DNA of 64,000 nt from an uncultured Geobacter sp. (GTDB lineage: Bacteria > Desulfobacterota > Desulfuromonadia > Geobacterales > Pseudopelobacteraceae): assembly GCA_964655435.1 (NCBI GenBank), contig CAZZMP010000004.1:18544-82543 (forward strand). The letters are read 5' to 3'. Below, in pieces: positions 31,051 through 36,179 of the stretch. A program made the translations under genes and the position numbers. The notes beneath the pieces were generated by a model. The model was given only the letters and a program-made list of their open reading frames with translations. It was not told where the DNA came from and did no database searches. Each line of letters begins with the position of its first letter. The stretch's first letter is position 1.

Positions 31051-31992
31051 GTGCTTTGTCCGCTCTGTAAAGAGGAAATAATTGATGGTGCAATAAAGTG
31101 CAAACATTGTGGAGGAATGCTAAACGATCTTTCCGGTAATTCAACTACTGCTCCGTTGACCAGCAAGCCATGCTCGTTCTGTCGTGAACAAATTCACCCT
31201 GAAGCTATCAAGTGCAAATATTGTGGTGCCATGCTTAATCAAGCAATGCCTCAAGGTGTTATGCCGCAATCTATGGGGCAACAGCCTATGTATCAAGGTG
31301 GCTCTGCTGAATATGACGTTCTGTATCCAGGATCGTATGCAATGGCTCGTGTAAGATTGAAACACGGCCAGATGATCAAAGCTGAATCTGATGCAATGGT
31401 GGCAATGAGTCCTACTATTGATGTTCAAGGAAAAATGGAAGGTGGCGTACTTGGGGCACTTGGTAGAAAATTTCTCACTGGTGAAAGTGCATTCATTCAG
31501 ACATTGACAGCAAGCAGAGGTGACGGAGAAGTGCTTCTTTCTCCGGCAACTCCCGGTGATATTCAGATACTGGAATTGAACGGCAGTAATTTTTTCTACG
31601 TACAAAAAGAGGGCTTTCTTGCTGGTGATGCTGGCTTAATCATTGAAACTGCATCACAAGGAATTATCAAAGGTTTGTTGAGTGGTGAAGGTATTTTCAT
31701 TCAACGGATTAGCGGTGTAGGTAAATTTGTGGTTTCAAGTTTTGGAGCAATCCACAAATTGACACTTGCTCCAAATGAAATGATGGTCGTTGACAATGCT
31801 CATCTGGTCGCATGGAGCGGAAGTGTTAGTTATGAAGTAGTACGGGCAAGCAAAGGGATTATGAATACGCTTACATCTGGTGAAGGTCTTGTTTGCAATG
31901 TCAGAGGCCCAGGTGACATGTATATACAATCACGCAATAAAGGCAGCTTCGGTAACTGGATTGCTCAATTTCTACCGAAATCATCAGAATAA
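31051..31992 (+). CDS. Double zinc-ribbon protein fused to an AIM24/TIGR00266 (DUF124)-like domain
   Basis: CPLCKEEIIDGAIKCKHCG and CSFCREQIHPEAIKCKYCG, then a Q/P/M linker. Next comes ARVRLKHGQMIKAESDAMVAMSP...GESAFIQTLTA..GEVLLSPATPGDI...GEGIFIQRISGVGKFVVSSFGAI...VVDNAHLVAW...SGEGLVCNVRGPGDMYIQSR, matching the AIM24 family pattern. Confidence 0.75.
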   Translation: MLCPLCKEEIIDGAIKCKHCGGMLNDLSGNSTTAPLTSKPCSFCREQIHPEAIKCKYCGAMLNQAMPQGVMPQSMGQQPMYQGGSAEYDVLYPGSYAMARVRLKHGQMIKAESDAMVAMSPTIDVQGKMEGGVLGALGRKFLTGESAFIQTLTASRGDGEVLLSPATPGDIQILELNGSNFFYVQKEGFLAGDAGLIIETASQGIIKGLLSGEGIFIQRISGVGKFVVSSFGAIHKLTLAPNEMMVVDNAHLVAWSGSVSYEVVRASKGIMNTLTSGEGLVCNVRGPGDMYIQSRNKGSFGNWIAQFLPKSSE

Positions 31993-31997
31993 CTGAA

Positions 31998-32378
31998 ATG
32001 AGATGCCCCTATTGCATGGAAGAAATACAAGACGGTGCTATTAAATGCAGGCACTGCAAGACGACAATTGTTGTAACAAATCCAATACTGCAAAATACAA
32101 CAAATGTATCGCAATCTCCTATTATTGCAGCATCTGACCAACAAACACCGTGGTTTCAAATTACAACAATGATTACGGGAATCGTCCTTATCATTGTTAT
32201 TTTGATAACTGACCCGTGGGACAAGGATGCAATTATCGGAGGTTTTTCTTTGTGCTCAATACAAATTGCCTTGGGGATCGGTGCAATCAATGTGTCAAGT
32301 CATGGCAGAGGTATGGCGGTTTCAGGATTGGTATTTGGAGTTTTGAGTTTTTTAATAACGTGTGCCATGGCTGCATAG
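31998..32378 (+). CDS. Zinc-ribbon membrane protein (3 TM)
   Basis: MRCPYCMEEIQDGAIKCRHCK, a linker, then three hydrophobic helices. Starts 5 nt after the preceding stop. Confidence 0.65.
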   Translation: MRCPYCMEEIQDGAIKCRHCKTTIVVTNPILQNTTNVSQSPIIAASDQQTPWFQITTMITGIVLIIVILITDPWDKDAIIGGFSLCSIQIALGIGAINVSSHGRGMAVSGLVFGVLSFLITCAMAA

Positions 32379-32411
32379 AATGAATGTATTTCCGAGGAGA
32401 GCATATCTGTA

Positions 32412-32981
32412 ATGATCTGTCCATACTGTAAAGAAGTCATACAAGACGGAGCTATCAAATGCCGTCACTGCGGATCAATTCTGAATACTGCACCCCCGTT
32501 ATCTCAGCCACCACCCTTCCAGAATCATTCAACAACAACCATCAATAATGATGAAATACGTGCATTTACCGGTAACAACTCAACTTACTATATTCAGAAT
32601 TTCGCCAAATTCACAATAGCTGGCACTGAAAACTTCACGATGACATGGAACTGGTCAACGTTCTGCTTCACGTTTTTCTGGATGCTTTACCGAAAAATGT
32701 ACATTCAAGCGGCAATCACTTTTGTCATTTTCTGGCTCCCCGGCATTAACATCATACTTCATATCGTAGCTGGCGTTGTCGGCAATTACCTGTATTACAA
32801 ACACGCCAAAGATAAAATCATTGAAATAAGAGCAATACAACCTCCGCAGACACTCTACACAGTTCTTCAAGAGGTTGGCGGTGTTCATGGCTGGGTAATC
32901 CCAGTTGGAGTAATAGCAGGCAGCATTATTCTTTTCTTAATGTTCTGTCTCATAGTTGCAATGATTGGGTTGTTCAAATAA
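32412..32981 (+). CDS. Zinc-ribbon protein with DUF2628-like membrane domain
   Basis: MICPYCKEVIQDGAIKCRHCG, then YYIQNFAKF...WNWSTFCFTFFWMLYRKMY, as in DUF2628, plus further TM helices. Confidence 0.65.
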   Translation: MICPYCKEVIQDGAIKCRHCGSILNTAPPLSQPPPFQNHSTTTINNDEIRAFTGNNSTYYIQNFAKFTIAGTENFTMTWNWSTFCFTFFWMLYRKMYIQAAITFVIFWLPGINIILHIVAGVVGNYLYYKHAKDKIIEIRAIQPPQTLYTVLQEVGGVHGWVIPVGVIAGSIILFLMFCLIVAMIGLFK

Positions 32982-34314: not shown

Positions 34315-34326
34315 TCGGAGTTAATA

Positions 34327-35481
34327 ATGAAATGTCCATTTTGTATGGAAGATATTGCTGACAATTCAGAAAAATGTTCTTTGTGTAACAGCGACATTGT
34401 AAAACCATGCCCTTACTGTATGGAGAAGATACAGGCTGATGCTTTGAAGTGTAAACATTGCGGCAGTATGATTAATTCTGCTCAACCAGCAGCACCCCAA
34501 CAGCCGCAATATCAGCAGCCCTCACCAGATTTTCAGCAGAATGCTGCATTGCCATCTGGTATTGCCGGTTGGAGTTGGGGAGCTGCCTTACTCAATTGGA
34601 TATGGGCAATCGGTAATAAAGTTTGGATAGGGCTGCTTGCCATTATACCGGGGATAAACATTGTCATGTTTTTTGTGCTTGGCATGAAAGGCCGAGAGTG
34701 GGCATGGAAAAATGGACAATGGGAAAGTGTAGATCATTTCAATCGTGTGCAGAAAAAATGGTCACAGTGGGCTGTCGGCTTAACCCTTGTTGGTTTTGTG
34801 TTTGGAGTAGTCGGAGCAATCGCAATGCCTCAATTCAATGCTTACAAGACCAAGGGGAATAATGCCGCTGCATTGTCGAGCTTGAAAAATTTGAAGACTA
34901 CTCTTGAAAGCAATTTTGCTGACAAACAAGTTTATCCAGAATCGCTTGAAACCAGTGGTTATAAAATTCCAGATGATGTGTATATGAAGTGTTCAATGAA
35001 TCCGGTTGGCTATGTATGCGTATCCGCCCACAAAAACGGCACAAAAATGTATGTGGTTGACAATAGTAATGCCAAGGTTGATGAGCAATCGTATATTACA
35101 GGTTCACCCGTACAAGTGCCATACGATCCACCAATGCCAGGTTCTGCAAAAGCAGACGAATATTTTCAAAATCAACCTACTGGACAAGTACAGCTAGACG
35201 CAAGCCAACAGCAACCGAATGGACAAATGACTTTCTCTCCCAGCTTTGATTGTACCAAAGCATCAACAGGGCCTGAAAGAATGATTTGCTCAAACAACGA
35301 ATTAGCACAAGCAGACGTACAATTGGCACAGGTGTATAAGGCTGCTTTAAGTAAATCACCAGACAAGGCAGCATTAAAGAAAGAACAAGTGGCTTGGATC
35401 AGAAATCATCGTGACGCTTGTTCTGATGCTTCGGCCATGCTACAAGTCTATCAGGATCGTATTTCGCAATTATCAAGGTAA
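34327..35481 (+). CDS. Chimeric protein: double zinc ribbon + TM domain + pilin-like helix/globular segment + LprI (DUF1311)-like C-terminus
   Basis: CPFCMEDIADNSEKCSLCN and CPYCMEKIQADALKCKHCG. TM block WSWGAALLNWIWAIGNKVWIGLLAIIPGIN. VGAIAMPQFNAYKTKGNNAAALSSLKNLKTTLESNFADKQVYPES resembles the short Geobacter-type PilA helix. The C-terminal FDCTKASTGPERMICSNNELAQADVQLAQVYK...EQVAWIRNHRDAC follows the LprI pattern. Confidence 0.7.
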   Translation: MKCPFCMEDIADNSEKCSLCNSDIVKPCPYCMEKIQADALKCKHCGSMINSAQPAAPQQPQYQQPSPDFQQNAALPSGIAGWSWGAALLNWIWAIGNKVWIGLLAIIPGINIVMFFVLGMKGREWAWKNGQWESVDHFNRVQKKWSQWAVGLTLVGFVFGVVGAIAMPQFNAYKTKGNNAAALSSLKNLKTTLESNFADKQVYPESLETSGYKIPDDVYMKCSMNPVGYVCVSAHKNGTKMYVVDNSNAKVDEQSYITGSPVQVPYDPPMPGSAKADEYFQNQPTGQVQLDASQQQPNGQMTFSPSFDCTKASTGPERMICSNNELAQADVQLAQVYKAALSKSPDKAALKKEQVAWIRNHRDACSDASAMLQVYQDRISQLSR

Positions 35482-35486
35482 CTGAT

Positions 35487-36179
35487 TTGTTCCTGAAAAT
35501 AGTAATCGTTACAATTTTCCTGATTTCATTGCAAGCCACCGGAGCATATTCCGGTGGCTTCATTATTGATCCAGGACATTCGCCAAAATCGAAGGGTGCA
35601 ACAAGCTGTACCGGTAACTCTGAATATCTCTACAATGATATTTTGTCGCAATACATTATTACATACCTATCAAATCAGCGCATGCCTGTTACGCTGACAC
35701 GCACACCACATGAAGAAATATCGCTGAAGGATCGGGCATTATCTGCAAGCGGTAAGAAAATATTCCTGTCAATTCATCACGATTCGGTACAGCCTCAATT
35801 CATTACATGGAAAAAATCTCTGCCAACATCAAGTAAAGCAGAAGGGTATTCAATTTTTGTATCATACAAAAATCAACATTATGAAGAATCACTAAAATAT
35901 GCTCGTGTATTTGGTGCTGCTTTGCGTGGTAGGGGATTCAAGCCAAGTAAGCATCATGGTGAAAATATCGCTGGAGAGAACAGAAAACTGCTTGATTCAG
36001 AAAATGGAATTTATCTTTTTGATGATCTTGTTGTACTCAAGAATTCTGATGCACCGGCTATTCTCTTTGAGGCGGCTGTAATCGTGAATCCACAGGATGA
36101 ATCACGGGCTGTTTCAGAATCATATAAAAGAGGGATTGCGGAGTCTGTAGGAGATATGTTAGTTGAAGCAGATCGTTGA
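35487..36179 (+). CDS. N-acetylmuramoyl-L-alanine amidase (Amidase_3), secreted
   Basis: Signal peptide, then FIIDPGHSPKSKGA...VTLTR...LKDRALSA...IFLSIHHDS. TTG start 5 nt after the previous stop. Confidence 0.75.
   Translation: MFLKIVIVTIFLISLQATGAYSGGFIIDPGHSPKSKGATSCTGNSEYLYNDILSQYIITYLSNQRMPVTLTRTPHEEISLKDRALSASGKKIFLSIHHDSVQPQFITWKKSLPTSSKAEGYSIFVSYKNQHYEESLKYARVFGAALRGRGFKPSKHHGENIAGENRKLLDSENGIYLFDDLVVLKNSDAPAILFEAAVIVNPQDESRAVSESYKRGIAESVGDMLVEADR

Follow-up and report, generated by a model that had tools for sequence, protein, structure and literature searches.

A zinc-ribbon AIM24 and membrane-protein operon on a Geobacter integrative island as a candidate XRE-controlled envelope module

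We analyzed a stretch of 64,000 nucleotides from an uncultured Geobacter sp. (contig CAZZMP010000004.1, positions 18,544 to 82,543 of the forward strand), here called the window, and in it a compact operon at positions 31051 to 36179 of the plus strand. The list of open reading frames (ORFs) contains eight co-directional genes in this range, g1 to g8, and not nine as counted by the initial annotation; ORFs were present at all the starts it had given, and the start of g4 is the ATG preceding MECPFC. The genes are tightly packed, as had been described, with gaps of 5, 33, 33, 12, 46, 12, and 5 nt in order, and 132 nt separate g8 from the next gene on the plus strand. Five of the eight proteins carry zinc ribbons (ZnR), the operon is divergent from an XRE-family regulator gene, and the whole lies on an integrative island; the data support a regulated envelope module carried as mobile cargo. 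Proteins were scanned with Pfam and NCBIfam hidden Markov models (HMMs) against curated cut-offs, transmembrane (TM) segments and signals were read from hydropathy, and structure models were compared to the PDB with Foldseek. The features are as follows, with the basis of each assignment in brackets.

30466-30786, minus strand: XRE-family helix-turn-helix regulator, divergent from the operon (Pfam HTH_19/HTH_3)
30857-30884, plus strand: predicted promoter-like site TTGACA-N16-TAGTAT (top consensus match of the region, 10/12)
30956-30970, no strand: perfect palindrome ATTCAAA-T-TTTGAAT, ATTCAAATTTTGAAT, candidate operator
31051-31992, plus strand: g1, ribbons at 31057-31113 (class A) and 31171-31227 (class B), a Q/P-rich linker, and a soluble AIM24/TIGR00266 domain (Pfam, NCBIfam, PDB)
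31998-32378, plus strand: g2, class-A ribbon at 32004-32060 and three predicted TM helices (hydropathy; homologue in locus L006)
32412-32981, plus strand: g3, class-A ribbon at 32418-32474 and a DUF2628-type membrane domain (Pfam, blastp)
33015-33539, plus strand: g4, class-A ribbon at 33021-33077 and a DUF2628 membrane domain (DUF2628 score of 32.7 versus a cut-off of 23)
33552-33800, plus strand: g5, soluble protein of 82 amino acids (aa), accessory (hydropathy; HMM scans)
33847-34314, plus strand: g6, lipoprotein of about 150 aa with an invariant lipobox Cys20 and an alpha/beta fold (alignment, hydropathy, model)
34327-35481, plus strand: g7, ribbons at 34333-34389 (class C) and 34408-34464 (class D), a DUF2628-like TM hairpin, a pilin-fold domain, and an LprI/DUF1311 domain (Pfam, model)
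35487-36179, plus strand: g8, N-acetylmuramoyl-L-alanine amidase (Amidase_3) with a Sec signal (Pfam; N-terminal hydrophobic segment)

Both regulatory sequences that had been proposed upstream of g1, the TTGACA-N16-TAGTAT promoter and the perfect palindrome, were located, and the XRE gene was indeed divergent. Promoter-like sites around the operon were not more numerous than in shuffled sequence, that is, than expected by chance. Related loci are designated here by L numbers and homologous proteins by P numbers; XRE homologues with 27 to 59% identity were found upstream of the cluster in L003, L007, L008, L009, L011, and L016. L003 harbors half-sites ATTCAA...TTGAAT, with a spacing that differs from that of the window palindrome; the palindrome as such was not conserved, and versions of the cluster other than L003 had no equivalent. 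A terminator scan detected no strong intrinsic terminator within g1 to g8, its only hits being a stem-loop without a T-run at 35533-35560 (in g8) and a weak 5-bp stem at 35143-35156 (in g7). From this arrangement we infer that g1 to g8 are co-transcribed and repressed by the XRE protein.

The feature common to g1, g2, g3, g4, and g7 is the ribbon. When all six frames of the window were scanned for CxxC-x9-13-CxxC, exactly seven matches were returned, all of them in these five genes, with two each in g1 and g7 and with a CxxC-x10-CxxC spacing in every case; the seven peptides quoted by the initial annotation thus read exactly as given, and the window holds no other such pattern. The DZR model scored above its gathering threshold in g1 (28.8 versus 27.3) and g7 (28.1 versus 27.3), as did Zn_ribbon_3 in g3 (29.5 versus a cut-off of 27). 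The ribbons of g2 and g4 scored below the cut-offs, yet they are 74 to 84% identical to the ribbon of g3, and by these scores and identities the motifs can be assigned to the zinc-ribbon family. Compared pairwise over 19 codons, the copies share on average 61% of their nucleotides and 61% of their amino acids; synonymous differences are close to saturation (crude pS of 0.5 to more than 1), compared to a pN of about 0.26. Saturated synonymous sites in a conserved peptide point to old paralogues under purifying selection, in agreement with what had been proposed, and rule out a recent DNA repeat.

The copies had been described as one motif, which holds for the shared spacing but not for the rest of the sequence, since clustering of all ribbon peptides from all versions of the cluster separated four classes, all of them conserved from one version to the next. 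Class A comprises the first ribbon of the AIM24 protein and the ribbons of all small membrane proteins (CP[FY]CKExIQ[DE]GAIKC[RK]HCG), class B the second AIM24 ribbon (xIHPEAIKCK[FY]C), class C the first ribbon of g7 (ADNSEKCxLC), and class D its second (ADALKCK). Judged from this clustering, the classes are orthologous between cluster versions. Class A is thus common to AIM24 and to the small membrane proteins despite the unrelated remaining domains. A two-ribbon AIM24 protein occurred only alongside a two-ribbon g7-type protein and a one-ribbon AIM24 protein only in its absence, in a sample that is small and made of versions that are not independent.

The domain assignments were largely borne out: AIM24, DZR, LprI, Amidase_3, and the DUF2628 domain of g4 all scored above their cut-offs, but the DUF2628 domain of g3 fell just below (20.9 versus 23), g3 being nonetheless homologous to g4 (blastp, 1e-13). 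The AIM24 domain of g1 (residues 87 to 313) is full-length and matched PF01987 at 2e-65 (220.6 bits versus 25.7), TIGR00266 at 168.8 bits versus 96.6, and PDB entry 1PG6 at 9e-36. Hydropathy gave no TM segment in g1 or g5. The g5 protein had no family match in Pfam, NCBIfam, or PHROGs, and among the fetched loci it was found only in two metagenome contigs with an identical cluster. NCBIfam provided only weak further hints, to TcaA (a ribbon and TM protein of Staphylococcus aureus) and to PilA. To our knowledge, no function has been established for bacterial AIM24. Eukaryotic AIM24 proteins are described as peripheral partners of membrane complexes, a role that fits a recruitment of g1 to the membrane.

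The g7 protein is the most composite. Its LprI domain (34.6 versus 22) follows the third TM segment, and an AlphaFold model built on 26 homologues predicts, in order, two ribbons, a disordered Q/P-rich linker, a TM hairpin, a long helix, a sheet, a second disordered linker, and a four-helix LprI domain with a pLDDT of about 93. The Trp-rich hairpin, which the initial annotation had not reported, resembles DUF2628 in its pattern and is linked to g3 by blastp. In the model the long helix (residues 135 to 200) is the third TM segment and is continuous with a four-stranded sheet, and Foldseek placed PilA4 of Thermus thermophilus first for this domain (6xxd_A; E of 1.4e-4, probability of 1.00, TM score of 0.72), followed by Neisseria and Geobacter pilins, so that the module read earlier as pilin-like is supported by structure as well. 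The sequence of the helix resembles that of Geobacter PilA. Neither a class III signal peptide nor a prepilin-peptidase site (G|F/M-x-x-x-E) was found in g7, and the pilin-like helix, beginning at about residue 149, is internal; g7 is therefore not a pilus subunit, and its assignment as a true pilin was rejected. According to the predicted topology, the ribbons face the cytoplasm, and the pilin-like and LprI domains lie on the outer side of the membrane.

The g6 lipoprotein matched no Pfam or NCBIfam family. Its structure model (pLDDT of 83) gave nothing below an E of 0.03 in Foldseek against the PDB and no confident fold match; protein E of Haemophilus influenzae and pilins were considered as relatives and discarded (E above 0.2, TM score below 0.3). 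Position +2 of the lipobox is Asp in 17 of 18 aligned homologues. Under the enterobacterial rule, to be applied here with caution, Asp at +2 of a lipoprotein causes inner-membrane retention, and this residue suggests that g6 is retained at the inner membrane. For g8, the Amidase_3 match is strong (4e-27, 95.8 bits versus 27), and H31, E46, H97, and E195 align with the zinc ligands and catalytic Glu of CwlV and AmiA. Its middle region is about 30 aa longer than in the CwlV type, bringing its length nearer to that of the regulated AmiA/AmiB type.

Homologues of g1 that bear ribbons form a small clade (P0001 to P0017), and N-terminal fusions of one or two ribbons to AIM24 are confined to this clade and to this cluster. 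Among the matches listed, the nearest ribbon-less relatives are standalone AIM24 proteins of 227 aa. The closest of them (65% identical) is encoded directly 5' of a Peptidase_M48 (HtpX-like) gene (L026, 8001-9881; L027, 4176-6056), with three unannotated genes upstream in both loci; this may be a separate AIM24 neighborhood, one that points to membrane-protein quality control. Close members of the cluster come from Geobacteraceae or Desulfuromonadales metagenome-assembled genomes (MAGs). Five distinct versions with a ZnR-AIM24 gene were recovered, four from Geobacteraceae and one, L007, from a Thermodesulfovibrio (Nitrospirota) MAG, in which the AIM24 start had been miscalled and the true N terminus bears a ribbon.

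Window: 7 ribbons, g1 to g8
L003: 6 ribbons; the g7-type protein ends in Cds6_C
L006: 10 ribbons in 8 ORFs; a ZnR-DUF805 protein and a g7-type protein with TM2
L007: 3 ribbons; between housekeeping genes
L008: 2 ribbons

A ZnR-AIM24 gene, ZnR-TM genes, and g6 were present in all five versions, and the divergent XRE gene in all four for which upstream DNA was available. The conserved core is thus composed of the divergent XRE gene, ZnR-AIM24, one to eight ZnR-membrane paralogues, and the lipoprotein of about 150 aa. Around it the content varies, from 2 to 10 ribbons and over DUF2628, TM2, DUF805, Cds6_C, and LprI modules. Another variable periplasmic component is a set of large secreted proteins without Pfam annotation, encoded downstream of g6 (L008, 2669-3811; L009, 11082-12362; L006, 8211-9899), which share the N-terminal motif xVxGxGxxxxxAxxxAxRNAVEQVIG. 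In L003, where g1 is 82% identical, HicB, ParDE, and EcsC genes flank the cluster, with no tRNA or integrase there, and the cluster adjoins HDOD and histidine-kinase genes (L003, 4115-7131; 289 and 716 aa) that resemble, by domain make-up and length only, the pair next to the island in the window (44959-47990; 288 and 720 aa). This neighborhood may be a variable chromosomal hotspot that is differently filled.

Variation of this kind would be expected if there were no single system at all and independent ZnR membrane genes had instead accumulated at a variable site of the island, next to unrelated genes for AIM24 and the amidase. Gene number and C-terminal modules do differ between versions, and the same architectures are found singly elsewhere. 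We nevertheless give this explanation little probability: the same three elements recur in five of five versions and in two phyla, with the XRE gene wherever upstream DNA is available, the ribbon classes are orthologous between versions, the genes are separated by only 5 to 46 nt without a strong intrinsic terminator, and several independent fusion proteins join the parts. Among the latter, P0326 is a ZnR-GYF-DUF2628-g6 fusion, P0292 combines DUF2628 with two g6 domains, P0133 and P0136 join g6 to the pilin-like domain, and in L010 and L011 a g6-LprI fusion is followed by Amidase_3. In L016, a standalone LprI gene adjoins g6. Read at the level of sequence, such fusions tie the periplasmic parts to the ZnR-membrane parts.

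The amidase and LprI follow a different pattern. An LprI domain is encoded directly 5' of Amidase_3 in five contexts (window, L020, L010, L011, and L024), and this LprI-amidase pair is a separate, recurrent two-part add-on that is also found without AIM24. The amidase was missing from L003, L006, L007, and L008 and was thus rejected as a core component. Co-occurrence and fusions together therefore define two layers, a core (XRE, ZnR-AIM24, ZnR-TM, and g6) and an optional LprI-amidase pair. The single XRE-associated envelope module of the initial annotation stands as far as its core recurs in five versions and fusions link its parts, but the amidase and LprI fall outside that core. One report gives DUF1311/LprI domains an antagonist or immunity role toward cell-wall toxins (PMC12135965), and another describes the LprI protein ScwA of Salmonella as controlling peptidoglycan hydrolase levels (PMC7933661).

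In the window, the operon lies on an island of 12.35 kb, delimited by repeats of the 3' end of a tRNA gene, with a G+C content of 0.36 to 0.42, compared to about 0.45 outside. Besides the operon, the island contains a P4-type integrase, AlpA, HU, and a Phd-like gene.

28683-28759, plus strand: tRNA-Arg(CCT), the integration target, with attL at 28715-28763 (ARAGORN, Rfam, direct repeat)
38717-39016: AlpA (Pfam)
39594-40901, minus strand: P4-type tyrosine integrase, Arm-DNA-bind_3 and Phage_integrase domains (Pfam)
41068-41116, plus strand: attR, a 49-nt copy (96%) of the tRNA-Arg 3' end (direct repeat)

The tRNA-Arg target, the 49-nt repeats, the integrase with AlpA, and the lower G+C content bear out the earlier description of the operon as island cargo. 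Context statistics were drawn from nine distinct contexts with at least 5 kb of flank, among which four (window, L010, L017, and L024) have an integrase within 10 kb; tRNA scans gave no integration site common to the related loci. The terminase-small-like and tail-fibre-like labels below come from a by-eye reading of the sequences, without an HMM.

L010: integrase within 10 kb, toxin-antitoxin (TA) modules, and a terminase-small-like gene (by eye)
L017: integrase within 10 kb, terminase-small-like and tail-fibre-like genes (by eye)
L024: integrase within 10 kb and TA modules
L003: TA modules
L007, L009, and L011: housekeeping genes
L006: no mobile-element or TA genes noted

The close family of g6 is rare: a set of 5.8 billion proteins contained 19 clusters of it, 185,579 species genomes contained four loci, and metagenomes contained 11; a profile search added 813 further representatives of a remote family. 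The close family had no relatives in IMG/VR and a single weak AIM24 match in GenBank phages. PADLOC-DB 2.0 gave zero matches to g1 to g8 at an E of 0.01 or below, and literature searches on AIM24 combined with zinc ribbon, DUF2628, TM2/DUF805/RDD, and TIGR00266/DUF124/COG2013 retrieved no description of such a cluster. The earlier statement that no system of this composition had been characterized thus agrees with both searches.

The mobile-element location, the terminase-small-like genes of L010 and L017, and the tail-fibre-like gene of L017 could also be read as traces of a remnant or satellite lysis cassette, in which the ZnR proteins would be holin- or antiholin-like, g8 the endolysin, and g6 spanin-like, the whole serving to release the element or a helper phage. 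In line with this, g8 matches endolysin PHROG 435 (4e-11) and the ribbons match phage protein families; g8 is however alone in giving an endolysin match in PHROGs, the families matched by the ribbons and LprI being of unknown function. The amidase is absent from most versions and its signal is an ordinary Sec-type one, the Asp at +2 of g6 suggests inner-membrane retention, unlike outer-membrane spanins, AIM24, pilin-like, and LprI domains are foreign to known lysis cassettes, Pfam detected no structural or packaging genes in the window island, and the viral databases are nearly devoid of relatives. We regard a lysis cassette as the least probable of the explanations considered.

We favor instead a mobile, apparently XRE-controlled envelope module in which a ribbon-docked AIM24/membrane assembly would alter peptidoglycan, most plausibly for phage exclusion or abortive lysis, a reading to which we give a probability of roughly 35%. 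On partners that are otherwise unrelated, the class-A ribbons share much more than their cysteines, and we take this ribbon for a docking or signal-receiving handle. Positioned at the cytoplasmic end of the inner-membrane proteins and on AIM24, such a shared docking handle could bring the membrane paralogues together with AIM24 in a single assembly at the inner membrane, or all ribbons could bind one cytoplasmic partner. The outward, periplasmic face would consist of the g6 lipoprotein and of the pilin-fold and LprI domains of g7. The LprI domain would be the cognate partner, most likely an inhibitor or a tether, of the exported g8 amidase encoded 5 nt downstream; a restraining or positioning of the amidase by LprI would be consistent with the antagonism of toxins by DUF1311 domains and with the regulation of hydrolases by ScwA. 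As a trigger, either the XRE protein would permit expression or a cytoplasmic signal would reach the ribbons or AIM24, and the module, once triggered, would act on peptidoglycan by altering or cleaving it. Phage exclusion or abortive lysis would be the most plausible benefit to the mobile element. A more specific version, namely, an undescribed mobile envelope device whose ribbon-assembled AIM24/membrane set couples a cytoplasmic cue, for example a phage, to periplasmic effectors such as an LprI-restrained amidase and thereby achieves exclusion or abortive lysis, is unlikely in this full form.

Several results weigh against the favored reading. The amidase together with LprI is absent from three of the five ZnR-AIM24 versions, so that peptidoglycan cleavage is not the core function. 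L007, L009, and L011 lie among housekeeping genes, and in L028 a chromosomal trio of a g7-like gene, a DZR-TM2 gene, and a TM2 gene sits beside PBP4. The nearest ribbon-less AIM24 gene has a different neighborhood, with the M48 protease, and the Foldseek comparison of the g6 fold yielded no functional lead. The negative or near-negative outcomes in IMG/VR, GenBank phages, and PADLOC-DB count on the same side.

Part of this evidence could also be explained by an envelope- or membrane-stress maintenance module, Psp- or Ter-like, in which AIM24 and the ZnR proteins stabilize or monitor membrane and wall, mobility is incidental, and there is no killing or anti-phage role. The housekeeping flanks, the ZnR-TM2/ZnR-LprI mini-cluster beside PBP4, the M48 membrane protease next to the nearest ribbon-less AIM24 gene, the weak ribbon and TM similarity to TcaA, and the tuning of peptidoglycan hydrolase levels by ScwA all fit such a role, as does the reported frequent placement of AIM24 genes beside TerD within ter clusters (Anantharaman et al. 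2012, cited in PMC5822837). Pfam however detected no PspA/IM30, TerD, TelA, or SPFH family among the operon proteins, an integrase lies within 10 kb in four of nine contexts, and the rarity and patchiness of the close family (4 of 185,579 species) are a poor fit to a housekeeping role. We therefore consider stress maintenance a possible though somewhat unlikely account.

Several parts of the favored envelope module belong to larger families. The hairpin and pilin-like helix of g7 are about 50% identical to hundreds of proteins (from Massilia, Rugamonas, Novimethylophilus [NMK_3304], and others), and in the wider g7-like family the N terminus carries ribbons or GYF and the periplasmic end LprI, SLT, TPR, or pseudopilin-like domains. 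One g7-like gene lies in an island with TIR, Ymh, and IS21 (L029). By sequence, ZnR-DUF2628, ZnR-TM2, and ZnR-pilin-like-LprI are widespread uncharacterized families and not inventions of this operon. Every domain comes from a known family; the unusual point is to see these families gathered around ZnR-AIM24 and g6 under a single regulator.

The island holds further features outside the operon. An exact 15-nt direct repeat, GTGCTGTAATAGAAT, occurs at 28818-28832 and 40916-40930, just inside both island ends, the first copy 55 nt past attL and the second 15 nt upstream of where the integrase gene starts; these are candidate arm-type integrase binding sites. Beside the tRNA at the island edge, 28833-29393 on the minus strand encodes a protein of 186 aa that has an HEAGH metalloprotease motif and matches Peptidase_M50B only weakly. 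Downstream of the amidase, 36312-36872 (plus strand) encodes another 186-aa protein, without a family match, and 36940-37563 (plus strand) a 207-aa protein with weak PADLOC matches to PRTase_III-A (4e-5) and ShosT (2e-4); the pair (36312-37563) may be a separate small defense-type cargo module.

An ORF-less region at about 29700-30400 (plus strand), rich in G and C runs, is 72 to 76% identical to L024:11531-12190 and to L010:12377-12840 (minus strand), so that homologous stretches sit in three islands with a P4-type integrase (window, L024, and L010). The RNAalifold consensus of the three sequences contains 126 pairs, with compensatory double changes in 25 of them, and several invariant G-U pairs favor the plus strand. 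Rfam gave no match in this region at an E of 0.1 or below. The region probably encodes a structured RNA of about 450 nt that has not been described before; it would be part of the island backbone and not of the operon.

Little or nothing is known of what AIM24, DUF2628, TM2-type ribbon proteins, and DUF1311/LprI, all of them large families, do in bacteria. Here they are united in one compact operon, which is tractable: its eight genes come with a single candidate repressor and with the amidase as an enzymatic read-out. If the envelope-device reading is true, it would provide a first function for bacterial AIM24 and for the DUF2628/TM2-type ribbon proteins. Should the ribbon be an assembly or signal-receiving tag, this would explain the very common N-terminal ribbon of small membrane proteins. 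An anti-phage or lytic role would make the operon a new cargo type for P4-type integrative islands, and if it is neither, it would still offer a clean hydrolase-inhibitor pair tethered at the inner membrane.

Compared to known systems, g1 resembles the AIM24/TIGR00266 family (COG2013; PDB 1PG6 and 1YOX; yeast Aim24, plant PAWH1/2) in its full-length, high-scoring domain and differs from it in that the nearest relatives stand alone without N-terminal ribbons. By architecture, g3, g4, and g7 are ordinary members of the ZnR-DUF2628, ZnR-TM2, and ZnR-pilin-like families, but elsewhere such genes occur singly or in groups of two or three, whereas here there are five to eight per operon, together with ZnR-AIM24, g6, XRE, and an island. 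Like type IV pilins and pseudopilins (PilA4, Geobacter PilA-N/C), the pilin-fold domain of g7 combines a long N-terminal helix with a four-stranded sheet, but the pilins have a class III signal peptide with a G|FxxxE motif, while the helix of g7 is an internal third TM segment.

The operon shares with phage lysis cassettes its small membrane proteins, cell-wall amidase, and lipoprotein; unlike them, it has no match to a holin or spanin family in Pfam or PHROGs, its core has no phage context, and its amidase is dispensable. Psp and Ter stress systems (Bacillus subtilis pspA-ydjGHI, S. aureus TcaA) are similar in their proteins with an N-terminal ribbon and TM segments and in AIM24-TerD neighborhoods. 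Finally, as in the DUF1311/LprI-hydrolase pairs (type VI secretion system [T6SS] effector immunity, ScwA, and LprI of Mycobacterium tuberculosis), the periplasmic LprI domain of g7 adjoins a hydrolase, g8. What sets the cluster apart is that it has neither a T6SS nor a toxin-delivery domain, that g8 has its own Sec signal, and that LprI is either anchored in the inner membrane, behind two ribbons, a DUF2628-like hairpin, and a pilin-fold domain, or part of a fusion with the g6 lipoprotein.

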